DNA from: Terriglobia bacterium
GTDB lineage: Bacteria > Acidobacteriota > Terriglobia > 20CM-2-55-15
DNA length: 64,000 nucleotides
Assembly: GCA_965198225.1 (NCBI GenBank)
Contig: CBDAOY010000006.1
Span: 608,001-672,000 of the forward strand
Reading direction: 5' to 3'
Positions 1,424 through 38,610 of the stretch are shown piece after piece (positions within the stretch are counted from its first letter, which is position 1; every line of letters starts with the position of its first letter). Position numbers and translations under genes: made by a program. A model generated the notes under the pieces. It had not been told where the DNA came from. It saw nothing but the letters and a program-made list of their open reading frames with translations, and searched no databases.

Positions 1424-1452
1424 AGGCGGCACGACTATACGTCCACGTGGAT
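1424..1452. repeat. Junction palindromic site, right half (CGACTATACG-TCCAC-GTGGAT)
   Basis: Matches the right arm of the ~40-bp site family. About 55 nt at 1432-1488 also resembles 12858-12913. Confidence 0.7.
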
Positions 1453-9568: not shown

Positions 9569-9737
9569 GCGGCTCCTTCTCGTGTCGATCGGTCGCTCGG
9601 AAGAGGGGCTTGTCGACGAGATGCACTTTTCCGTATCGTCGACTTGAACGAAGCCGCTGGCGCGGCGGACGCTACGCGTGTGCTGAGCGAAGAGTGATGA
9701 GCCCCCGATAGAGTGTGAGCCTCACAAGGAGGCTCAC

Positions 9738-10628
9738 ATGACGAAGCTGCGACAACGGATGCTGGAGGAACTCCAGCGCCGGAACTACTCACCCGCTACG
9801 ATTCGGCTGTATCTTCACGCGGTCGAAGACTTCGCCCGCTACTTCGGGAAGTCCCCCGACAAGCTCGAACAGGAACAGATGCGGCAGTACCAGCTGCATC
9901 TGCTTCAGGAGCGCAAGCTCGCTGTCGACACCATCATCGGACGGATCGCCGCACTCCGGTTCTTCTACGTGAAGGTGCTTCGCCGTCCCTATCACCAGGT
10001 CGATCTGGTCTATCCGAAACAGCCGTCCCGGTTGCCCACGATTCTGAGCGAAGAGGAAGTGGCGCAACTGCTGGCCTCCGCCAACAGTGCCTATCACTTC
10101 GTCATCCTGATGACCTTGTATTCGACGGGACTGCGGCGGGCCGAGCTGTGTCGTCTGAAGGTCGAGGACGTCGATAGCGAACGCATGGTGATCCATGTGA
10201 GGCAGGGTAAAGGCAATCGCGACCGCGACGTGCCGCTGTCACCGAAACTGCTGGAAGTCCTGCGCGACTACTGGCGTTGGCGGAAACCCGGCGAGTACCT
10301 CTTCCCCAGTTTGCTCCGGACCCGGCCCGGACAGCCCATCGATGTGAAGACGGTTTGGTACGCCGTCCAACAAGCCGCCCAACGTGCCGGCATCAAAAAG
10401 AAAGTATCCCCACATACGCTGCGCCACAGCTGGGCCACCCACCTGCTGGAGAGGGGAACCGACCTGCGAACCATCCAGCTCCTGTTGGGTCATGTCGATC
10501 TGGAAGCGACGACCCTCTATCTCCATTTGTCTCAGGCGCACATGCAGCGCGTGGTGAACCCGATCGATTCTCTTCCGGTTCCCGATCTGGGACCGTCTCC
10601 CCGTCTGAGAAAGAAGAAAGGCGAATGA
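9738..10628 (+). CDS. Tyrosine recombinase/integrase
   Basis: YSTGLRRAE, GKGNRDR, HTLRH, LLGH and catalytic Y in TTLY. Integron-integrase-like N-terminal domain. Confidence 0.95.
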   Translation: MTKLRQRMLEELQRRNYSPATIRLYLHAVEDFARYFGKSPDKLEQEQMRQYQLHLLQERKLAVDTIIGRIAALRFFYVKVLRRPYHQVDLVYPKQPSRLPTILSEEEVAQLLASANSAYHFVILMTLYSTGLRRAELCRLKVEDVDSERMVIHVRQGKGNRDRDVPLSPKLLEVLRDYWRWRKPGEYLFPSLLRTRPGQPIDVKTVWYAVQQAAQRAGIKKKVSPHTLRHSWATHLLERGTDLRTIQLLLGHVDLEATTLYLHLSQAHMQRVVNPIDSLPVPDLGPSPRLRKKKGE

Positions 10629-11794
10629 GCCGGCCCGCCGTCGAGGTGGCCGACATCGTCCGCGCCCGGGTTCGAGGTTTCCTCCAGCGTCACCGCCTCG
10701 GCATCCAGAAGCTCAAGGTCCTGCGCGCCATCCTGAACTGTCGTACTGCGGCTCTGGGTGGCCACATCGACCGGTGTGCCGATTGTGGCCGGGAGTCCGG
10801 AATCTCGTTCAACTCCTGCCGCAACCGCCACTGCCCGAAGTGTCAGACCCAGGCCCGACGACGGTGGCTCGAAGCACGAGAAGCCGAACTGCTGCCCACC
10901 CCCTACTTCCACGTCGTGTTCACCGTCCCGCACCAGTTCCATCCGTTCTTCTTCCACAACCCTGCCCTACTCTACAGCCTGCTGTTTCGCAGCGTGGCCG
11001 ACACGATGATCGAGGTGGCGGCCAATCCGAAACGACTCGGCGCCCGGATCGGCTTCTTCGGCATCCTGCATACCTGGAGTCAGAACCTGGAGTTCCATCC
11101 CCACATCCACTGCGTGGTACCGGCCGGCGGACTGGCTCCGGATCAGTCCCGTTGGATTCCGGGTTCTGGGCGCTTCTTCCTCCCCAAGCAGGTGCTCGCC
11201 CGAGTCTTCCGTGGCAAGTTCATCGACGGGCTCGGGCGAGCGATCGCCGACGGTTCGCTCGAACTGTCCGGCTCGATTCGACCCTTCGGCGAACCGCAAC
11301 ACTTTCGGCGGTTCCGCCGCCAGATCCATTCCCGCAACTGGGTCGTCTATATCAAACGACCCTTTGGTGGCCCCGAACAGGTGCTCCGCTACCTGGGCCG
11401 CTACACCCATCGGGTCGCCATCTCCAACCATCGATTGATCTCGTTTGACGGTAACCGGGTCCGGTTCCGTTGGCGGGATTACCGCAATGGCAACAAGAGT
11501 CGCATCATGACACTCGCGGCCGACGAGTTCATCCGACGGTTCTTATTGCACGTTCTGCCGAAGGGCTTCGTCCGCATCCGACACTTCGGATTCATGGCCA
11601 ACTACCGCCGGTCGGCCGCCTTCGCTCTCTGTCGCCAACTCCTCGATGCCATGCCGAGGGTCGAATCTGACGAAACCACCACCTCGAACTCTTCCTGGTC
11701 GTGTCCGCACTGTCAGGGACCGATGACTCTCATCCAACGCTTCACCGCTCTGCAACTCGTAGCGAGGCTCGCCTTCCAATGCGATACGTCCTAA
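10625..11794 (+). CDS. IS91-family (Y2 HUH) transposase with Zn-binding domain
   Basis: NSCRNRHCPKC Zn motif, HPHIH HUH motif, YLGRY, RIRHFG, C-terminal CPHC. Confidence 0.93.
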   Translation: MSRPAVEVADIVRARVRGFLQRHRLGIQKLKVLRAILNCRTAALGGHIDRCADCGRESGISFNSCRNRHCPKCQTQARRRWLEAREAELLPTPYFHVVFTVPHQFHPFFFHNPALLYSLLFRSVADTMIEVAANPKRLGARIGFFGILHTWSQNLEFHPHIHCVVPAGGLAPDQSRWIPGSGRFFLPKQVLARVFRGKFIDGLGRAIADGSLELSGSIRPFGEPQHFRRFRRQIHSRNWVVYIKRPFGGPEQVLRYLGRYTHRVAISNHRLISFDGNRVRFRWRDYRNGNKSRIMTLAADEFIRRFLLHVLPKGFVRIRHFGFMANYRRSAAFALCRQLLDAMPRVESDETTTSNSSWSCPHCQGPMTLIQRFTALQLVARLAFQCDTS

Positions 11795-12216
11795 TCCTCC
11801 TTCACAAACCGACGACCGACGTGCGGTTCAGCCACGTCCTCGCCGGAGTGTGCCTCCGCTGCAAAATCCCCTCAGATCCCGTCCTTTCAACCCACCGATT
11901 CCCCGACCCAACTGCTTTCCGATTCACACCATCGACGCGGTCATCGACCGCCGGTCCCCCTCCTCGCCCCAACGCCACTCCAGATCCGGCCCGCTTCCGG
12001 CTACTTTCTCCATAGCCCACCGCGTCCGCCGCATTCGGCCAGCGCCCTCCTTCAAGTCTTGTTATCGAAACTGCCGCGGTGGGAACTTCTCGCTCATCCT
12101 GTGGCCGCGCTCGCCGCGGCACTTCCGATGAACGCTAACGACTATACGCCCGAGTGACTGCCTGCATGCCGGCCAAGCCGGCTCCAGCCGCTTGTTATCC
12201 GCCGTCCTCCGTACCG

Positions 12217-12838: not shown

Positions 12839-12879
12839 ATCCTCATCTCCGTGAAGGCGATCTACACGTCCATGTGGAT
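12839..12879. repeat. Junction palindromic site (41 bp)
   Basis: ATCCTC-ATCTC-CGTGAAGGCGATCTACACG-TCCAT-GTGGAT. Confidence 0.75.
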
Positions 12880-20069: not shown

Positions 20070-20109
20070 ACCGGTAACGGAGTATCGGCGACCATACGGA
20101 CAAGTGAAA
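20070..20109. repeat. Junction palindromic site (40 bp, left hexamer degenerate)
   Basis: ACCGGT-AACGG-AGTATCGGCGACCATACG-GACAA-GTGAAA. Confidence 0.65.
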
Positions 20110-20317
20110 TAGCTAAACGCTGCGTAGGAAGAGTCGGCGACGGTCTTCGCGGGATTGGCTGGTGACCGGTCGTTACCAGGGACGTGCTCCGAGCCGCTAC
20201 GCCAGACGATGTGGCACAGCAAGCTGCTCGAATCGCCGATCGGAGCGCAAGTTGCCGACACCGGGATCAACCTTGAGACCGACTTACGTGGCGTCAGAAG
20301 TCGCCCACAAGGGCTAG

Positions 20318-21854
20318 GAGTCTGCGCGGCAGAGCGCAAAGAACTCGGACTGATTGGGATTTGAGAGGGTCTTCGGAGGAGAATCGACCGATTCTTCCGA
20401 TACGACGAGTTCAGAGTTGTACGGACACCCGTAATTGGCCGTGTATCGGGTCTGCCGGGTTGCGGTTTTCCGGATTATGCCCATTCGATCTTCCCGTTCA
20501 TCCGTCGTAAGTTCACCGCCAGAGTGACCAGATTCCACTCCCCGGTCACTTTGTCCAAACCGCGTAGACTGAACTGTCGGAATCCGAGCACCGACTTGAT
20601 CCACCCGAAGGGCGGCTCACCAATGTGCTTTCGGGCCCGGTAGCGGTCACGCCCACGCTTGGTTTTCATCTTTCTCATCATCCGACCAACAGCGGTGTCT
20701 TTGGGTGGGAGTGGGGCACGGGCGAGATCCTTCTCGCGACCCATCGCAACATACCCGTCAATCTGACGTTGTTCCAACATCCCCAGATTTGACTCGGATC
20801 GATATCCCGCATCGGCCAGCACGCGGTCGGGACGCTCCCCCAGATTGTCGCTCAACGCATCCAGCGTGGGTTCCAACTGCCCCACATCCGATGCATTGTC
20901 AGTCACCGTTGTTGCCACGATGATCCGGGCCTGGGAATCCACCACCGCTTGCGCGTTGTAGCATTGCTGGAACCCTTCGGTGGAGGTCTTCATCATCCGG
21001 CTTTCCGGGTCGGTGAAGTTGTCCTGGGCCGTGGGTTTAGGTTCCCCCATGGGACGTTTGAATGGCTTCTTTCCGCATCCGGGTTTGTGATCTTTGGTGT
21101 TCCGTCCCGCTTCCTTGTCCGCGGCCATCTGACGTTCTTCGAGCCGCTTCATGGCCGCCTGTATCGTGGCCAGGCGCTTCTTGCGCGTGGCCAACCCGTC
21201 GGGCAGTTCGTCTCCGCGCCGGTCCTTGCCGTATCGCTCGTCTTCGTCCTCATCGGTCGCCTCGGCCCGGTTCAACAGATCCCGAATCTGTTCACCCAAT
21301 TCGGTCTCCTGCTTTTTCATGCGTTCGTAGCTCATCGCTTTGCGTTTGCTTGCATTCGCCCGCATCTTGGTCCCGTCCACCGCCACGGTTCCCATCTTCA
21401 CCAGTCCCGCTTCCCGCGCCATCATCACCACTTGCACAAACAGGTTTCCGAACTCCTCAAGATGCAGTTTGCGAAAATCCGAGATCGTTCGGTGCGCCGG
21501 AAAGTTCTCCGCTCCCAACATCCGGAACGCTACGTCGTCGGTCAACTTCGCCGCGATCTTCCTGGACGAGAACACTCCGGTCGCGTACCCATAAATCAGC
21601 ACCTTCACCATCATCCGCGGATCAAACGCCTGATTGCCCGGACCCTCGGTTCCATACCGCTGTTCGAACGCGCTCAAATCCATCGCGTCCACCGCGTCCG
21701 ATATGAAGTACGACAGGTGATCTTCGGCCAACCAATCTCTCAACGACGGTGGCATCAGCAGTGTTTGTTCTGGGCTATAAGTTCGATAGGTTCGTGCCAT
21801 GACATATCTTCGATCTTTATCCGCCCAATTCCGGTCCTTCTGCCGCGCAGACTC
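20318..21854 (-). mobile_element. IS1182-family insertion sequence
   Basis: Perfect 16-bp terminal IR GAGTCTGCGCGGCAGA. CTAG target duplication at 20314-20317 and 21855-21858. Confidence 0.92.
20475..21800 (-). CDS. IS1182-family DDE transposase
   Basis: 'AVDGTK', 'NFTDPESR', 'LADAGY', 'EPPFGWIK' motifs. Confidence 0.95.
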   Translation of the reverse strand: MARTYRTYSPEQTLLMPPSLRDWLAEDHLSYFISDAVDAMDLSAFEQRYGTEGPGNQAFDPRMMVKVLIYGYATGVFSSRKIAAKLTDDVAFRMLGAENFPAHRTISDFRKLHLEEFGNLFVQVVMMAREAGLVKMGTVAVDGTKMRANASKRKAMSYERMKKQETELGEQIRDLLNRAEATDEDEDERYGKDRRGDELPDGLATRKKRLATIQAAMKRLEERQMAADKEAGRNTKDHKPGCGKKPFKRPMGEPKPTAQDNFTDPESRMMKTSTEGFQQCYNAQAVVDSQARIIVATTVTDNASDVGQLEPTLDALSDNLGERPDRVLADAGYRSESNLGMLEQRQIDGYVAMGREKDLARAPLPPKDTAVGRMMRKMKTKRGRDRYRARKHIGEPPFGWIKSVLGFRQFSLRGLDKVTGEWNLVTLAVNLRRMNGKIEWA

Positions 21855-21976
21855 CTAGCGAGCGTGTCTTCATCTGCCTTCCCGCGTCCTTGTCAAAAGG
21901 GTTTCTTGGCTGTACGCTGCCTCGTGGCCCACCAGGGAGCCTGTATGTCAGATTCTTGGTGCATGAAGGAGACGCG

Positions 21977-23346: not shown

Positions 23347-23383
23347 ATCCACGTTATCGTATAGGCATTACAGTCATGTGGAT
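23347..23383. repeat. Junction palindromic site (37 bp)
   Basis: ATCCAC-GTTAT-CGTATAGGCATTACA-GTCAT-GTGGAT. Confidence 0.75.
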
Positions 23384-24785: not shown

Positions 24786-24825
24786 ATCCACTTTTCCGTG
24801 TCGCCGACTTTACGGCAAGTCGGGG
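24786..24825. repeat. Junction palindromic site closest to the E1 target
   Basis: ATCCACTTTTCCGTGTCGCCGACTT matches the E1 left flank ATGCACTTTTCCGTATCGTCGACTT at 22/25 positions. It continues TACG. Confidence 0.8.
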
Positions 24826-24848
24826 GCAGAAGGCTCGAACACAGGTCC

Positions 24849-24905
24849 CTAAGGCACTGGCACACGTTCCTTGAGTTCTTCGAACCAGTTCAGAACAACT
24901 GTGAT
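24849..24905 (-). pseudogene. Isolated C-terminus of a kinase-TolB family protein
   Basis: ITVVLNWFEELKERVPVP*. Confidence 0.7.
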
Positions 24906-24989
24906 CGGGATCGAACCGGTTTCGGCGGCCGGTCGGCTACTCGTAGATGTGCATGGGCGCTAACAAGAAAAGTGTCCACTGCATTGACC

Positions 24990-25142
24990 TCAAGCCCCTT
25001 GCCTCGTACTCTTCTTCTCCGGATTTGCTCGTGCGGTTCGTTCCTGCAGTGCTTTTCGAACTTCCCGGATACGTTCTCTCATCCGAAGTTTTGCCTTGCG
25101 CAGACGGTTGAAGCGCGCCTTGTCACCATTTCTTGCGGACAT
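24990..25142 (-). CDS. 50-aa highly basic microprotein (absent from ORF track)
   Basis: GAGG RBS. MSARNGDKARFNRLRKAKLRMRERIREVRKALQERTARANPEKKSTRQGA. Confidence 0.65.
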   Translation of the reverse strand: MSARNGDKARFNRLRKAKLRMRERIREVRKALQERTARANPEKKSTRQGA

Positions 25143-25260
25143 CTGTCACCTCACATAATTCAGCATTCAGATTCTAGTCATTTGTGAACGAATAGAAAGT
25201 GTCCTCTTGCTAACGGAACGACAAAGGCCACTGGATGAACATTCAGACCCCCGGCTTTCC

Positions 25261-25296
25261 CGACGAGATCCACAAGGAAGTATCGGCGACATATCA
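25261..25296. repeat. Junction palindromic site, left half
   Basis: CGACGAG-ATCCAC-AAGGA-AGTATCGGCGAC, compared with the E1 left flank CGACGAG-ATGCAC-TTTTC-CGTATCGTCGAC. Confidence 0.75.
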
Positions 25297-25625
25297 GGAA
25301 TTAGCGGGAGTCAGTCGTTCGGTGCGCGTACTTGCGACGATTGATTCGACGAAACTAACGAATACAGGTTCGAGTAGGACTCTCGCGTTCGGGCTGTTGT
25401 TCCATGAGTACCAAACAGACGGAATCGGATAAAACTTAGCGATGAGGTGCTTGAGCTCCTCAAGGCCAGACGGTTTGTGTGACGTTGGCGCGTCAAGCAA
25501 GGTTTTCGCCTTCGCGGGGCGGGGGGTCACTCTTGCGGAGCAGACCCGAGCGCCGACAGCTACACTAAAACATTGTCACGCTCGGCCAACGTTATTGTAT
25601 TCTCTGTCCGGACTAATCGGAGGGA

Positions 25626-28017: not shown

Positions 28018-28176
28018 CCGTAGATAAGACTATGAAAGGGACTTGTGGTCAATCAGAAGGTCACTTCCCTGAAATACCGCTTTCTCGGAAACGTACCAAT
28101 GCCCGGTCGGCGCCGGTCGGTCATGGACGTGGCTGCTTCTCAGGCGAGGGAACGGATCGTCACGCGCACGCTGAGA

Positions 28177-29540: not shown

Positions 29541-29585
29541 ATCCACATCTACGGTTAGCCGGCACGACTACTCGCTCAAGTGGAC
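29541..29585. repeat. Junction palindromic site (45 bp)
   Basis: ATCCAC-ATCTA-CGGTTAGCCGGCACGACTACTCG-CTCAA-GTGGAC. Confidence 0.75.
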
Positions 29586-30028: not shown

Positions 30029-30267
30029 ACCAGCATCGCTTTCCGTCTCCCTCCTCGACCTCGCCCGCAAGACCCATCGGCGATGGTGCCGATAGCACTG
30101 TTAAAGGCCACTTAGACTCCCGCGGGACGCTCAGGTCACCAGTCCAGGCCGAAATTCGTTTTGTATTGCTGTCGTTTCCTTCTTCGCCTGTCACTTCTGG
30201 ACTAATCGTCGCACTCTGGGCACTCGGCCGGCTGTGGGCGAGCTCACATTCGGACAATGTCCCATAA

Positions 30268-33956: not shown

Positions 33957-34105
33957 TGGGTGAAGTGTGGCCGGGATACGAAGCCGCGACGGCCTGCGGC
34001 CGCGCGCGGGTTGTTGTCGGATTGAGTTGATTCAGGCTAAGGTGCCTTAGCGCGGCCTCTATTAACCAAGTTTGAATTATCAACCTGAATATTAAGGAGC
34101 GGAGA

Positions 34106-34894
34106 ATGGCAACGACGTGGCGAGTTTCTGGACGCATACAGGTTTCGGTGAATGAGCGCGAATCTGAGGGCAGAGTTCGTGAGACCGGAAATATGCAAGG
34201 TGTAGAAGTAGAAGTATTTGGTTCCCTTTTGAATTCGGGTAACACTAGAGACACCTGGTGGAGCCTTGAAACTGTGATTCACGAGGTAATGCACTTGTGG
34301 AACTATGATCACAACACCGGCACGTCCAATTGGCTCCAGGCGGTTTGTGATGGCAACACCCACTCTTTCCAGGAAAAGCCCGCAATCGCGTTTCACGAAG
34401 GATTTGCTGAGTACGCAATGGACGATCTTCTTCATGAGATATGGGGACTGAACCGTGTGGAACCCTTTAATAGGCATAGCGTGCGAAACAGGAGTGGGCA
34501 GGCGCTTACCAATCTAAAGGTCGTGGAAGGGAGCGACGAAGGTGTCACAAATGCCCTCCACACGCTGACGACTCCTGATATCTACACGCGAACCTTCGGG
34601 ACACGGACTAGCACCACCCCGAGGGGCAGTCGAGCGGGCACTACCACTACGACCGGCAGGAATTGCCCCCGCAGCCCCAACCTCGATTTGTGGGATGTCC
34701 TAAAAGTTTTCAAGCCCGCGCCACGGTCAGGTTGGAAAACTGCTTGGCAAGTGGGCAGGCCGTCCTATGGCATCGTCCGATTCTTCAAGCGCGCGGCAGA
34801 TGTTCTGCCTTCGTTTGGTTCACAAGCCGAGAGATTGTATCTGGCTCTGATAGACCCAGACTCGAATGTGGAACCGCAAAGCCGCTGCAGATAG
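34106..34894 (+). CDS. Hypothetical protein with an HExxH zincin-like motif
   Basis: 'VIHEVMHLW' and downstream 'AFHEGFAEY'. AAGGAG RBS. Lower GC than its neighbours. Confidence 0.6.
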   Translation: MATTWRVSGRIQVSVNERESEGRVRETGNMQGVEVEVFGSLLNSGNTRDTWWSLETVIHEVMHLWNYDHNTGTSNWLQAVCDGNTHSFQEKPAIAFHEGFAEYAMDDLLHEIWGLNRVEPFNRHSVRNRSGQALTNLKVVEGSDEGVTNALHTLTTPDIYTRTFGTRTSTTPRGSRAGTTTTTGRNCPRSPNLDLWDVLKVFKPAPRSGWKTAWQVGRPSYGIVRFFKRAADVLPSFGSQAERLYLALIDPDSNVEPQSRCR

Positions 34895-34948
34895 GCGGAT
34901 AAGCGGTATAAGCAGGGTCCGACGACTATGGCAACACCACGCGCTTGC

Positions 34949-35005
34949 ATCAACATCGTCCTAAACTGGTTTGAAGAACTGAAGGAACGGGTGCCAGTTT
35001 CCTGA
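34949..35005 (+). pseudogene. Isolated C-terminus of a kinase-TolB family protein
   Basis: INIVLNWFEELKERVPVS*. Confidence 0.7.
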
Positions 35006-35571
35006 TTTTCCGGGTCAAGTCCTGATAAATCATCTTGTCGGACATTGACCACCAGGCCGTAACGGCTACCCGTAGAAGGCCCCGTAGCAAAGGACGACAG
35101 ATTACCCGCCATAAGTCGCCTAGCGTTTAGGAATGAGCAGCATCAATGACCAAAAAACTGGCTTACGGTTTCGAACGCAAGATCTAGGATAAGTACTATT
35201 AGGAGAGTAACTTGAGGTCAATGAAAAGGTCAGATGCTCGTAATACGCCATGTTTCTATCGGAGATGGTCCGGGACCGACAGTGGCAGGAATGATCCGGG
35301 GCATGTCGGATAGAACGGTTTGAAGTGAGGCGCAGGCGCGGTCGGGAGGGAAAGCCCTATGGGTTTTCAATCGAGGGGCCGGGGGGATATACAAGCAGCC
35401 GACTCGATGTTGGGACATGGAGTGGGCCGAACTTTGCGTTGCGCTGCCCGGTTCTGAGGTTTCCGAAGCATTCGGACCGGACTCGAAAGGCCCAGTTGAC
35501 AGATCCCAGACACACTGGCGCGGTGCAGTCCAGCGGGCCGCGAAGTGGACGTGGTTGTGGAGCATTGACGG

Positions 35572-36756
35572 TTAGGTACTGTCGAGAATCGGGACCGGCC
35601 TGGATGTGATGAACCCGAGTTGGAGCGCGGTGAAGCGTTCGACGATGCGCATGGTTCCGTGACAGAGCGGACACGGTTCCGGCGGAGTGTTTGGGGGCGG
35701 AGAGTCCGGCTCCGACGTGGGTGTCTGGCCGAGGAGTCGCCGACACAGCCCGAGCATCACGGCGCGTTTCCGATTGGCCATCCATCCGAAGTAACGGATG
35801 CGGGGAAAGCCTTTCGGCAAGACGTGGTGTAGGAACCGCCGGAGGAACTCCTCCGGGGCCAGTGTCATCGTGCGGGGTCGTCCGTTGTGGCGGTAGTCCT
35901 TCCATCGGAATGTGACGCCGTCGGAGGTGACGCTGATGATGCGATGGTTAGAGATCGCCACCCGGTGCGTGTAGCGGGCCAGGTACTGGAGCACGTGTTC
36001 GGCACCGCCGAAGGGCGGCTTGGCATAGACGACCCAGTCCCGGTCTTTGAGGTCATCGATGAACTGCTGGAAGCGGGATGGGTCGGCCAGTTGCAGGCAT
36101 TCGCCGTGGAAGGCGAGCGTCTTGTTATCGAACGCCTCAGCCAACCCATCGAGGAACTTCACTCGGAAGACGGCACTGAGTTTCCGGACCGGAAGCAGGA
36201 AGTCGGACCGCGACGGATGGACCCACCGGTCGTGATCCGGTGAGGGTCCGCCACCGGGAACGACGCAATGGATATGGGGATGCCGTTCCAGGGTCTGTCC
36301 CCAGGTGTGCAGGATGCTGAGGAAGCCGGCTTCGGCACCCAGATACTTCCGTTGAGCCGCGACCTGGATCAAGGCGGCGGCACTGGCGTGAAACAGGAGC
36401 CGGTAGAGGACGCGCTTGTTCTGCCAGATGAGTGGGACCAACTGATGCGGCAGGCTAAAGACCAGATGGTAGTAACCGACCGGCAACAGTTCCTGCTGCC
36501 GTTTCTCGACCCAGGTGTTTCGGGCCTGGGTCTGACACTTCGGACAGTGGCGATTCCGGCAGGAATGGTATAGAAGTGTGTCGTGGCCACATCGTTCGCA
36601 TCGTTTCCGGTGACCGCCTAATGCTTGGGTCCGACAACGGGTAATCGCATTCAGGACTTTGACCTGGGGCCAGGTCAGCGCCCGCCGATACCGGTTTCGG
36701 AATCGGTCTCCTGCGATGCGAACGACCTGGGCCACCTCAAAGCGTGGCCGGCTCAT
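35572..36756 (-). CDS. IS91-family HUH transposase
   Basis: SCRNRHCPKC, HPHIH, YLARY, RIRYFG, CPLC. Confidence 0.93.
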   Translation of the reverse strand: MSRPRFEVAQVVRIAGDRFRNRYRRALTWPQVKVLNAITRCRTQALGGHRKRCERCGHDTLLYHSCRNRHCPKCQTQARNTWVEKRQQELLPVGYYHLVFSLPHQLVPLIWQNKRVLYRLLFHASAAALIQVAAQRKYLGAEAGFLSILHTWGQTLERHPHIHCVVPGGGPSPDHDRWVHPSRSDFLLPVRKLSAVFRVKFLDGLAEAFDNKTLAFHGECLQLADPSRFQQFIDDLKDRDWVVYAKPPFGGAEHVLQYLARYTHRVAISNHRIISVTSDGVTFRWKDYRHNGRPRTMTLAPEEFLRRFLHHVLPKGFPRIRYFGWMANRKRAVMLGLCRRLLGQTPTSEPDSPPPNTPPEPCPLCHGTMRIVERFTALQLGFITSRPVPILDST

Positions 36757-37630
36757 CGCTTTGTCTCCTCAACAACGGCAGGCAGGTGCAACTGATCCAG
36801 GGGGTTGCGTGCCATCTCCAGGTGACGGCGAGACAGCTGGAGATACAGCGTGGTATCGGACAACCGGCTGTGTCCCATCAAGAGCTGGATCGTGCGCAGG
36901 TCGGTCCCCGACTCAGCAGATGCGTACCGAAGCAGTGGCGCAGCGTATGGGGACCGACTTTCTGCTCAAGACCGGCCCGTTCCGACGCCCGACGGACCGC
37001 ATACCAGACGACCTTGTCCGAGATCGGCCGTTTCACACCCCGGTGTCGGGCACTGCTGGGAAACAGATACCCCGCCGGCCGTTTCAACAACCAGTATTGC
37101 CGCAGGGCTTCCAGCAAGCTCGGGCTCAACGGCACATCTCGGTCCCGACGACCTTTGCCCTGGCGGATATGCACCAGCATCCGCTCACTGTCGATATCGG
37201 TGACCTTCAACGTCGATGCTTCTGTGCGCCGCGCTCCGGTTCCGTAGAGCACCATCAGGATCGCCCGGTGCATCGGTGTCACTGCCGACTGGATCAACTG
37301 CCCGACTTCATCGGGGCTTAGGATCGTCGGTAGTTTCCGGGCCGTCTTGGGAAACGGCAGGTCATCGATCCCCAGATCGGCTCGACGCAGCACCTTCTTG
37401 TAGAGGAATCGCAAGGCGGAGATCCGCGCCTCCACCGTGTTCGGGGCCAGCTTCTGCTTCCGCAGCATGTGCAGCTGGAACCGTCGCAGTTCTTCGGCTC
37501 CCGCATCGGCGGGAGACTTGCCGCAGTATTGGCGGAACTGGTCGAACGTGATCAGGTAGCTGCGAATCGTTCCAGGCGCGTAGTTGCGTCGCCGGAGCTC
37601 GTCCAGCAGTCGTTTTCGTAGTGGGGTCAT
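36753..37630 (-). pseudogene. Tyrosine recombinase, frameshifted at ~36914
   Basis: Adding one G after HTLRHCFGTHLL restores ESGTDLRTIQLLMGH...TTLY and the ATGA overlap with the transposase. Confidence 0.88.
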
Positions 37631-37764
37631 AAGCCACCTCCTTATGACCGCCACTGTATGGGATGGGATCTATCTACAGGACGCCGACTCCGAGCGCCTG
37701 CGGCTTAGTTCTAACCGCCGATACGGAAACCTGGAAACCGGCTGAAATGGGGCTTCAGGCCGCG

Positions 37765-37803
37765 AGCCACTTTGGAGTATCGGCGACTTGTCAAGAGCTG
37801 GAA
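37765..37803. repeat. Junction palindromic site (39 bp)
   Basis: AGCCAC-TTTGG-AGTATCGGCGACTTGTCA-AGAG-CTGGAA. Confidence 0.65.
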
Positions 37804-37926
37804 GGATGGCGAACGCTGCGATGCTCGCAGCAGTATAGAGTCAGGGGCGCCTACGCCAAGGGTGTCTTGCGGCGTGCAGAACGCTGCCGCGTGAGAGGGA
37901 CCGTCAGTTTGTCTACCCAGATTCCG

Positions 37927-38610
37927 TCAATCGCTCACTGTCCTTGAATTAAAGCGGAGCAATCCGCCGCCGAACAGAATTCCCAGAACCGAAGCAGCGA
38001 CGTTAGCAGCGAGAGGGCCAACGACGTTAGCCACGGGAGGTCCACCGAAAATGATAAAGGGTCCGAAGAGCACGAGGTTCATAAGAAGGAGCGAACCGGC
38101 GAACAGAAGTACTACACCTGTTTGTTGCTCGCGATGATAGCGGACGACCAGCCAGCCACACATTGCCCCGACCATGAGAGGCAACGCGACTGCGAATACA
38201 AAGGGGTAGACATGGCGTAATCCGGCCCATTGGTTAGAGGAGAAAGGTCCAAGTACCGGCATCCACATGAAGCTCCACGCAGTCTTGATTGGTTGGCCCG
38301 GCCCAATCCAGACGTCCCAGCCGTTCCCGGAGAAGAAAGGGCTGACGAAAGGGAAGATCATCGCTTTGCCGCAAAGAATCCACATGCCCCAACCTGTCAG
38401 AAGCGCTCTGGCGGCGATCCACTTGTGTCCTTGAATCTCCCTGAAGAAGCTTACCGGAATGGCTTTCATCGCCTGACGCCAATACCACATCGCGCTGGCT
38501 TTCTGCAGGTACTGCTCCGCAAGATCGCCGAGGACCGCATCATTGTTGGGTCCGGACCCAAAACGTTTCAACATCCACGTTGCAACTCTGGGGGGCTTTT
38601 TCGACGTCAC
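37927..38610 (-). CDS. PadR-associated membrane protein (permease-prefix domain)
   Basis: 'PPRVATWML...VLGDLAEQY...WYWRQ' followed by TM helices. GTG start overlaps the padR stop. Confidence 0.8.
   Translation of the reverse strand: MTSKKPPRVATWMLKRFGSGPNNDAVLGDLAEQYLQKASAMWYWRQAMKAIPVSFFREIQGHKWIAARALLTGWGMWILCGKAMIFPFVSPFFSGNGWDVWIGPGQPIKTAWSFMWMPVLGPFSSNQWAGLRHVYPFVFAVALPLMVGAMCGWLVVRYHREQQTGVVLLFAGSLLLMNLVLFGPFIIFGGPPVANVVGPLAANVAASVLGILFGGGLLRFNSRTVSD

Follow-up and report, generated by a model that had tools for sequence, protein, structure and literature searches.

Two IS91-family elements with an upstream tyrosine recombinase gene occupy a fixed position in palindromic sites of a Terriglobia bacterium: a candidate role for the recombinase in targeting

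A 64,000-nucleotide stretch of a Terriglobia bacterium genome (assembly GCA_965198225.1, contig CBDAOY010000006.1, positions 608,001 to 672,000; hereafter the window) carries two diverged elements of the IS91 family of insertion sequences (ISs), E1 and E2. Each has an IntI/Xer-like tyrosine recombinase gene translationally coupled to the gene for a Y2 HUH transposase. The sites that hold them share a common plan: a 15-nucleotide (nt) left arm, a 6-nt hexamer, the element, and an inverted 15-nt right arm. The arms and hexamer form an imperfect palindrome of ~36 bp. The insertion position in it is fixed, with the element set precisely between hexamer and right arm, and only one orientation was found, both here and for relatives in three other genomes. 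On balance we favor the reading that insertion at this boundary is site- and orientation-specific and is directed by the element's own recombinase. The features discussed are collected in Table 1.

E2, a single-copy element of 2,469 bp, reads as an arm (37734-37720), the hexamer GGCGGT (37719-37714), the element TAGAAC...ACATGGCGT (37713-35245) and a second arm (35244-35230). Its right end was placed at 35245, where the identity of E2-like copies from two other genomes (G405 and G412) begins, and bases 35245-35249 thus belong to the element and not to the flank. The initial annotation had described E2 as a second occurrence of the target geometry of E1, a claim that is borne out by the consensus of 24 half-sites described below and by the recurrence of the arms in G402 and in G405/G412, and that does indicate target specificity. 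The flank strings that it quoted are present at 35228-35249 and 37716-37736. The exact ends that it gave were off by about 2 nt on the left and 5 nt on the right (35245 rather than 35250), and the rejoined site, which it took to be 39 bp long, is better described as 15 + 6 + 15 = 36 bp. A 4-nt core, CGCC/GGCG, that was thought to be shared by the two junctions of E2 had to be dropped, because the E2-like copies of G405 and G412 share only GT(T) between their junctions. The repeated GGCG at E2 probably reflects the likeness of the target hexamer GGCGGT to the terminal hexamer of the element, TGGCGT.

The resemblance between E1 and E2 at their ends was reproduced. The 30-nt upstream pattern common to both occurs exactly twice in the window, at 9628-9657 on the plus strand and at 37700-37729 on the minus strand, against 0.00 expected from 100 shuffles. 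The downstream spacing (TCCGAT, 16 nt, ACG, 5 nt, STGAC) was likewise found at both elements. It is a composite, in which TCCGAT and the following 13 nt form the right end of the element and the remainder belongs to the right arm of the target. As had been proposed, E2 is not a recent duplicate of E1: the two share 65-66% nucleotide identity over their coding parts and 53% identity between their transposases (TnpA).

E2 is an old, decaying member of the family, with its single copy, an intact transposase gene and a frameshifted recombinase gene. The −1 frameshift lies near position 36911, upstream of the segment with the catalytic tyrosine, and a 1-nt gap is seen there against E1. A tblastn comparison with the G405 homologue gave 70% identity in one frame up to residue 243; the final 53 residues, with the catalytic tyrosine among them, align at 83% identity in a different frame, and E2 thus loses the C-terminal part of the enzyme.

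Within the nine near-identical copies of E1 in the source genome, identity extends from CGACTTGAAC (9640) to ...GCTAACGAC (12142), in some cases with one more T (12143); TnpA is 100% identical at all nine loci. Assembled contigs of four public sequencing runs (X1, X3, X4 and X5) break at 9640 and at 12142/12143, as expected for a repeat. In the assembled contigs of these runs, the only data searched for this purpose, neither a contig joining 9639 to 12143 nor a circle junction was found, a result that weighs neither way. The layout of E1 is an arm, GGCGAC or GTCGAC, TTGAAC...GCTAACGAC, and an arm. The last 15 nt of E1 itself score 6.9 bits as a left-type arm and are followed by the hexamer-like AACGAC, and the right junction therefore reads as a complete site. 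The E1 copies are 98-100% identical inside, yet their arms differ from copy to copy. In one copy, ~4.3 kb of other DNA separates the first ~70 nt from the remainder (C6:341981-342075 and C6:346378-348812, where C6 is the contig that holds the window), and a partial copy consisting of the last 789 nt lies at C9:797351-798139.

The common plan held at all the junctions compared, namely 8 left and 10 right junctions of E1, E2 and three 283-bp E2-type miniatures, with the flanks aligned by the junction alone. These flanks yielded 24 distinct 15-nt half-sites in the source genome, with the consensus T-W-T-W-C-G-n-n-C-A-T-G-T-G-G read outward from the element. Conservation totals 10.6 bits, with C5 present in 24/24, T13 in 22/24 and A10 in 20/24. 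A half-site matrix was built from the source-genome flanks only and used at a threshold of at least 8 bits. Its genome background is 6665 positions at or above threshold in 12.8 million (5.2e-4 per position); within the window, scores average −14.6 bits with a standard deviation of 7.0. The miniatures (C5:540744-541026, C5:520761-521043 and, on the minus strand, C2:60150-60433) are non-coding and have the ends of E2-type elements only. Their flanking arms obey the same geometry, and matches to the tail alone also occur in G402, G403, G405 and G412.

The arms are inverted relative to each other and can be compared as potential stems. Left and right arms gave 283 complementary matches against 263.7 ± 9.6 in permutations, a value reached by 145 of 5000 permutations and hence a weak signal of hairpin covariation, and no excess was seen at the variable positions 7-9. 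Complementarity is therefore no higher than the shared consensus predicts, and two protein-binding arms fit better than a hairpin maintained by compensatory change. The hexamer is the second component of the site, and in three lineages the terminal hexamer of the element resembles it. E1 ends in AACGAC and its target hexamer is GGCGAC (GGCGAC or GTCGAC in 8/8 copies), E2-type elements end in TGGCGT or TGACGT at an nnCGGT-like target, and a third family, found in G402, ends in AAGCGT at a target like CGGCGT or CGACGT. No tRNA gene was found between 30000 and 40000 of the window and no Rfam family matched at E ≤ 0.1 within 34000-38500 or in locus L067, so the target corresponds to no known RNA gene.

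Unoccupied sites were sought as inverted pairs of arms. With spacers of 1-8 nt, 14 pairs were found against 2 in the control orientation. The spacers, which are absent from the matrix, fall into two hexamer classes: six sites have GGCGAC, and other sites have GGCGGT, TGCGGT or AGCGGT, this second class appearing as accgcc, accgca or accgct when read on the other strand. An inverted half-site lies 45-48 nt upstream at 4 of 16 E1-type sites. A further site just outside E2 had been suggested at 37765-37803; its left arm (37767-37781, 9.5 bits) and a GGCGAC (37782-37787) are there, and the right arm (37788-37802, −8.4 bits) is not recognizable.

The sites are embedded in a repeat of ~190 bp. An nhmmer profile built from 17 sites returned 28 matches, all of them in four regions of the genome, and within each region the orientation of the sites is uniform and the same as that of the resident E1 copies. 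BLAST of one 161-nt site repeat against 20 relatives gave no match and missed its own paralogues too, which makes this search too insensitive to count. One paralogous set is informative about insertion itself. The genome has three copies of a 472-bp stretch (24819-25290 in the window), 96.6-97.5% identical, and each of them spans the distance from one site to the next; the downstream site is empty in the window (25270) and holds E1 in the other two copies (C6:342 kb and C9:767 kb). The empty paralogue reads arm-GGCGAC-arm with a single CGAC, from which it follows that no target duplication accompanies insertion. The 472-bp module also carries a very basic open reading frame (ORF) of 50 amino acids (aa) on the minus strand (24990-25142).

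Table 1. Features of the window and related loci (window positions unless a contig is given; C, contig).
Feature	Position	Strand	Remarks
E1, active relative of E2 (TTGAAC...CGAC)	9644-12142	+	CGAC also at 9640-9643; ends therefore ambiguous by 4 nt
E1 left target arm (9623-9637) and hexamer GTCGAC (9638-9643)	9623-9643	+	12.0 bits
E1 tyrosine recombinase gene, 296 aa	9738-10628	+	PF00589 and PF13495; NF040815, 223 bits
E1 tnpA, 389 aa	10625-11794	+	PF14319 and PF04986; NF033538, 432.6 bits
E1 right end: arm-like 15 nt (12124-12138), hexamer-like AACGAC to 12142, right arm R15 (12143-12157)	12124-12157	+	R15, 11.7 bits
E2: left end, recombinase pseudogene, tnpA, tail, right end	35245-37713	-	Ends set against E1 copies, miniatures and G405/G412 copies
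E2 left target arm (L15)	37720-37734	-	8.6 bits; same register as E1 left arms
E2 target hexamer GGCGGT, between left arm and element	37714-37719	-	Same class at unoccupied sites
E2 left-end motif T-AGAAC-N-AAGCCGC, followed by short palindrome	37700-37713	-	Kept in E1, E2, miniatures and elements of 5 other genomes
E2 tyrosine recombinase gene, frameshifted	36757-37630	-	PF00589 and PF13495 over first 250 aa
E2 tnpA, 394 aa, intact	35572-36756	-	Start overlaps recombinase stop as ATGA; PF14319 and PF04986; NF033538, 428.6 bits
E2 non-coding tail, 327 nt	35245-35571	-	Last 19 nt (35245-35263), TCCGAT + 13 nt, are the conserved right end of the family
E2 right target arm (R15)	35230-35244	-	12.6 bits; abuts element end directly, as in all E1 copies
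Unoccupied E1-type site	12841-12877	+	Arms 11.0 and 15.5 bits; spacer ggcgatc
Unoccupied E1-type site	20072-20107	+	Hexamer GGCGAC
Unoccupied E1-type site	25270-25305	+	GGCGAC; paralogue of two sites that hold E1 elsewhere in the genome
Unoccupied E2-type site, read inverted	28061-28096	+	Spacer accgct
Hexamer-like CACGAC and right arm with conserved right extension	1430-1450	+	Left half replaced by CTAG-bounded repeat
Neighboring E1-type site, inverted relative to E2 site	37767-37802	+	32 nt from E2 left arm; good left arm, GGCGAC, degenerate right arm
Site region 1	C6 295-342 kb
Site region 2 (the window)	C6 609-646 kb
Site region 3	C9 763-819 kb
Site region 4	C4 26-73 kb
Third-family tandem pair L099	G402 C1:151055-156370
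Third-family tandem pair L107	G402 C1:2049275-2054590
Third-family tandem pair L108	G402 C1:4641272-4646580

Both transposases match the model NF033538 (IS91 family transposase) far above its cut-off of 125 bits, and their two Pfam domains correspond to the N-terminal zinc-binding and Y2 HUH domains, in which the H-x-H and Y-x-x-x-Y strings can be read. The left end, GAAC-N-AA followed by a small palindrome, is conserved in seven lineages; the left and right ends are not inverted repeats of each other. Across the computed circle junction (last 60 and first 60 nt, nine lineages, both strands folded) no conserved structure was found, and only the left-end palindrome recurs. Target duplications are absent: the junctions share only the constant CGAC (E1) or GT(T) (E2-type), and the flanks otherwise differ. 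In the right flank, E1 is followed by CTAT, CTTC, CTTA, CATT and similar tetranucleotides, and E2-type and third-family elements by GTTA or GTTT, which are alike in style to the published GTTC/CTTG and not identical to them. By their transposases and ends E1 and E2 are members of the IS91 family, and they belong to its subgroup that has a recombinase gene upstream of the transposase gene. In other genomes of the phylum, 26 of 29 loci carry this pair of genes, a tally that includes locus L023 of an unpublished genome (G049) and is 25 of 28 without it.

The recombinase of E1 is predicted to be a simple tyrosine recombinase, made up of a SAM-like N-terminal domain and a catalytic domain with the R..K..HxxR..H/W..Y residues, and without an arm-binding domain. 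PF13495 and PF00589 together cover residues 4-267 of 296, the strings HTLRH and LYLH can be read, and the NF040815 score of 223 bits lies just above the cut-off of 220. We rejected an assignment as the integron integrase IntI, because the TIGR02249 score (202.9 bits) is below the cut-off of 265 and the matches cover only model positions 4-176 and 238-315, leaving the IntI-specific segment (about 178-237) unmatched. The available text of Smyshlyaev et al. (bioRxiv 10.1101/542381) places IS91-borne recombinases in an integron-like subgroup that is without the extra helices of IntI.

Related elements in other genomes provided a larger sample (scored with the matrix described above). Copies in G405 and G412 that are 75-77% identical to E2, with identity starting at the position equivalent to 35245, have arms of at least 8 bits at 5 of 11 left and 4 of 9 right flanks (9/20 pooled). 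For copies in G402 that are 85% identical to E1 the figures are 5 of 8 and 4 of 6 (9/14 pooled). The arm pattern does recur outside the source genome, in unrelated contexts. A third lineage in G402 (69% identical to E1, ~25 copies, with both genes) has arms at 0 of 12 left and 0 of 12 right flanks; all that is left of the site there is a hexamer like CGGCGT or CGACGT with TT after it. Arm targeting is lineage-specific. The refuting outcome named in the initial annotation, loss of the flank matches in a larger sample, did not come about for the E1 and E2 lineages; the third lineage lacks the arms (0/24). The hexamers at the E1-like copies of G402 are ggcgac (four times), gacgac (twice), cgcgac and caggac. 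Among the E2-like copies of G405 and G412, the stretch that separates the left arm from (T/A)GAAC is variable (CGGTT, GGGTT, TGGTT, TCCTT and GAGTT) and the right end is constant, which indicates that the left-junction bases derive from the target and not from the element. At the locus orthologous to that of E1, downstream of the same S9 peptidase gene, G412 has an E2-like element in the opposite orientation (C5:1054403-1057023).

We consider it on the whole probable, from the junctions and the predicted proteins, that insertion is targeted by the recombinase. The recombinase would bind the two arms and carry out a conservative exchange at the boundary between hexamer and right arm. Its substrate would be circles or tandem copies of the element produced by the Y2 transposase. 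The exchange would be integron-like and in effect one-sided, since the hexamer is invariably that of the target at the left junction and that of the element at the right junction; exchange at a single boundary is known from integrons. Three features point to the recombinase: a target with the architecture of a duplex core site, an end of the element that is itself arm-like, and arms without excess complementarity. Several observations weigh against this reading. That the recombinase is the inserting enzyme is something we infer, and the same junctions also fit the IS91 tetranucleotide rule in the available text of PMC13181058, according to which a tetranucleotide at the terminus end is matched by a like one flanking the origin end. 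The third lineage of G402 has both genes and no arms, so the presence of a recombinase gene alone does not imply arm targeting. At both junctions of the E1-like copies of G402 the base after the hexamer varies (T, A or C), which a simple one-point exchange by a recombinase does not predict. Two of the eight E1-like copies of G402 (L096, C1:5060990-5063820, and L097, C1:5095322-5098120) are followed by a 14-15-nt shell in which the opening 5-6 nt of the left end meet the final 9 nt of the right end at GAAC, and this may be a scar of transposase-type excision. The orthologous locus of G402 and G403, between the peptidase and AAA genes, has no E1 and no recognizable site; its spacer is a different, only loosely similar sequence. 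Finally, the recombinase gene of E2 is broken, and E2 therefore says nothing for current activity.

The most serious competitor, to which we give a lesser though real chance, is that the Y2 transposase alone picks and cuts the target. The palindrome would then be a hairpin beside a nick site that mimics the nick site at the origin end of the element, that nick site would comprise the terminal hexamer and a (C/G)T(T/A)N tetranucleotide, and the recombinase would have a different task, for instance resolving tandems or excising the unit. The tetranucleotide logic of IS91, IS801 and IS1294 (as far as the available text of PMC13181058 goes) fits every lineage: E1 starts with CTTG and has C(T/A)(T/A)N in its right flank, and E2-type and third-family elements start with GTT(A/T) and have GTT(A/T) there. 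In G279, the left-end and right-flank tetranucleotides are drawn from the same pair, GTCA and GTTT, in all four combinations. Hexamer-plus-TT specificity persists in the third family despite its lack of arms, the GAAC-joined shells resemble donor joints after single-strand excision, and the consensus arms are self-complementary and could form a hairpin. Perfect head-to-tail tandems, in which the right end abuts the left end without a spacer, were found at 3 of 15 left ends of the third family, as rolling-circle read-through would give. Against transposase-only targeting stands the fact that classical IS91 members need only the tetranucleotide (available text of PMC13181058), whereas here 15-nt arms on both sides, an arm-like right end of the element and the lack of compensatory change have the look of a duplex core site for a recombinase. 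New insertions moreover carry 15 nt outside the two GAAC cleavage-like points, which a single-strand circle running from GAAC to GAAC would not. It is improbable, in our view, that the likeness of the flanks reflects no target preference at all, with the arms traveling with the element or with E1 and E2 nested in another repeated or mobile sequence. The ~190-bp repeat with its 28 matches, confined to four regions that also hold E copies, the threefold 472-bp module bounded by sites, and the G402/G403 intergenic region that has neither E1 nor a clear site would all fit such nesting. However, copies that are nearly identical inside have different arms, unoccupied sites exist (one of them paralogous to two occupied sites), and the arms recur in unrelated contexts in other genomes; insertion into the repeat always hits a single base in a single orientation, which in itself amounts to target specificity. 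Chance resemblance between the flanks of E1 and E2 had in its favor only the small size of the original observation, which comprised two sites, and its probability is now close to nil in the face of the shuffles, the half-site consensus, the unoccupied sites and the independent genomes, since the larger samples refuted it.

A speculative and rather doubtful possibility is that the palindromic sites are recombination sites of an integron- or pdif-like system of gene modules in Acidobacteria, for which the IS91-borne IntI-like enzymes would be the sole cognate recombinases, with E1- and E2-type enzymes each serving one hexamer class (the classes often stand back to back, 45-48 nt apart). Between the sites of the window lie accessory genes of mixed kinds, with both orientations represented. 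The orientation of the sites is opposite in sign to the GC skew in 4/4 regions; the skew is weak (|0.001-0.04|), and this is a lead only. The genome also has a true IntI gene (C6:488798-489706), which scores 446.5 bits with TIGR02249, above the cut-off, and contains one in-frame TGA. No E-type site pairs were found near it (C6 480-540 kb).

We compared these elements with known systems. Like IS91, IS801 and IS1294, they show a full-length match to NF033538, dissimilar ends, a small palindrome beside GAAC at the upstream end and no target duplication. As in IS91, where the upstream ORF is orf121, the stop of the upstream ORF overlaps the start of tnpA and the left-end and right-flank tetranucleotides are alike. 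They differ in that the upstream ORF is a tyrosine recombinase gene and not orf121, and in their target, a 36-bp palindrome whose hexamer matches the element end, instead of a tetranucleotide only. The flanking tetranucleotides also differ, C(T/A)(T/A)N or GTT(A/T) here against GTTC/CTTG in the available text of PMC13181058. ISWz1, ISShvi3, ISSod25 and others, IS91-family entries of ISfinder with an upstream integrase gene, have the same two-gene architecture as E1 and E2. ISShvi3 adjoins an attC site in a Shewanella integron (available text of PMC9229058), and ISWz1 occurs in multidrug-resistance regions of conjugative elements, for which the available part of PMC11322121 gives no target rule. 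In the openly accessible literature searched, we found no description of a target rule or of a recombinase role for IS91 elements with a recombinase gene.

Integron core sites follow a G|TT crossover rule. Likeness to IntI systems extends to the placement in the integron-like subgroup, the one-sided insertion at the edge of the spacer and the GTT at the crossover of E2-type elements. The sites described here are 36-bp duplex-type palindromes, in contrast to folded attC sites of 57-141 nt, and E1 has CTT at the crossover. Within the arrays the sites all point the same way, and at least one repeated module has sites at its borders. Xer recombinases act at dif, integrative mobile elements exploiting Xer recombination (IMEX) integrate at dif, and Acinetobacter plasmids carry pdif modules. 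With Xer/dif our sites share two inverted arms around a 6-nt center and AT-rich inner arm ends, and the recombinase is simple, without an arm-binding domain; with pdif they share gene modules bounded by repeated sites. The recombinase is, however, borne by the element and is not the host XerCD, and there are many co-oriented sites as opposed to a single dif or alternating pdif sites. E1 and E2 as IMEX integrating at dif were accordingly rejected, given the element-encoded recombinase and the at least 28 site repeats in four regions. The IS1111-attC group, group IIC-attC introns and ISs that target repetitive extragenic palindromes (REP) home to structured repeats. Like E1 and E2, they insert in a position- and orientation-specific manner in a repeated palindromic site; they use a DEDD transposase or a reverse transcriptase, and none is known to pair an HUH transposase with a tyrosine recombinase. 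ISs and introns that home to structured repeats are also mentioned in the available text of PMC9229058.

Several other repeats were noted. At ~20 loci of the source genome (e.g., C5:4598 and 4922; C6:841505 and 841835), a repeat family contains the GAACGAAGCCGC motif of the E1 left end in another context; it often occurs in tandem pairs of ~325 bp and may be an ISCR-like end module. Just beyond the right arm of E2 are two short repeats (34894-34937 and 34949-35048), of which many ~85-95% identical copies exist in related genomes; in G406 and G416 the first, of 44 nt, forms clusters separated by a few kb. For these two repeats no match to tRNA or Rfam was found. In the window, two inverted pairs of arms with high scores have odd spacers (23349-23381, 3 nt; 29543-29583, 11 nt) and may be variant or damaged sites. 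Between two palindromic sites lies a ~1.55-kb DDE-transposase IS (20311-21860; PF01609 and PF05598), present in at least 14 copies of >99% identity in the genome. An 81-nt repeat (30032-30112) has more than 50 copies (94-99% identity) over all large contigs.

The recombinase gene of this IS91 subgroup is on record, and we found no published role for it. A fixed insertion point in a core-type site, combined with co-variation between hexamer and element end in three lineages, suggests a testable function for the enzyme, namely target choice and integration, and also a way in which the work could be shared between a rolling-circle transposase and a site-specific recombinase. The co-oriented arrays of sites and the repeated modules point to possible cassette-like gene exchange in soil Acidobacteria; if the sites do belong to such a system, a rolling-circle IS would be its mobile integrase platform. 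A target rule for the subgroup, which includes ISWz1, would also help in reading the resistance regions of conjugative elements in which ISWz1 occurs, as described in the available text of PMC11322121.

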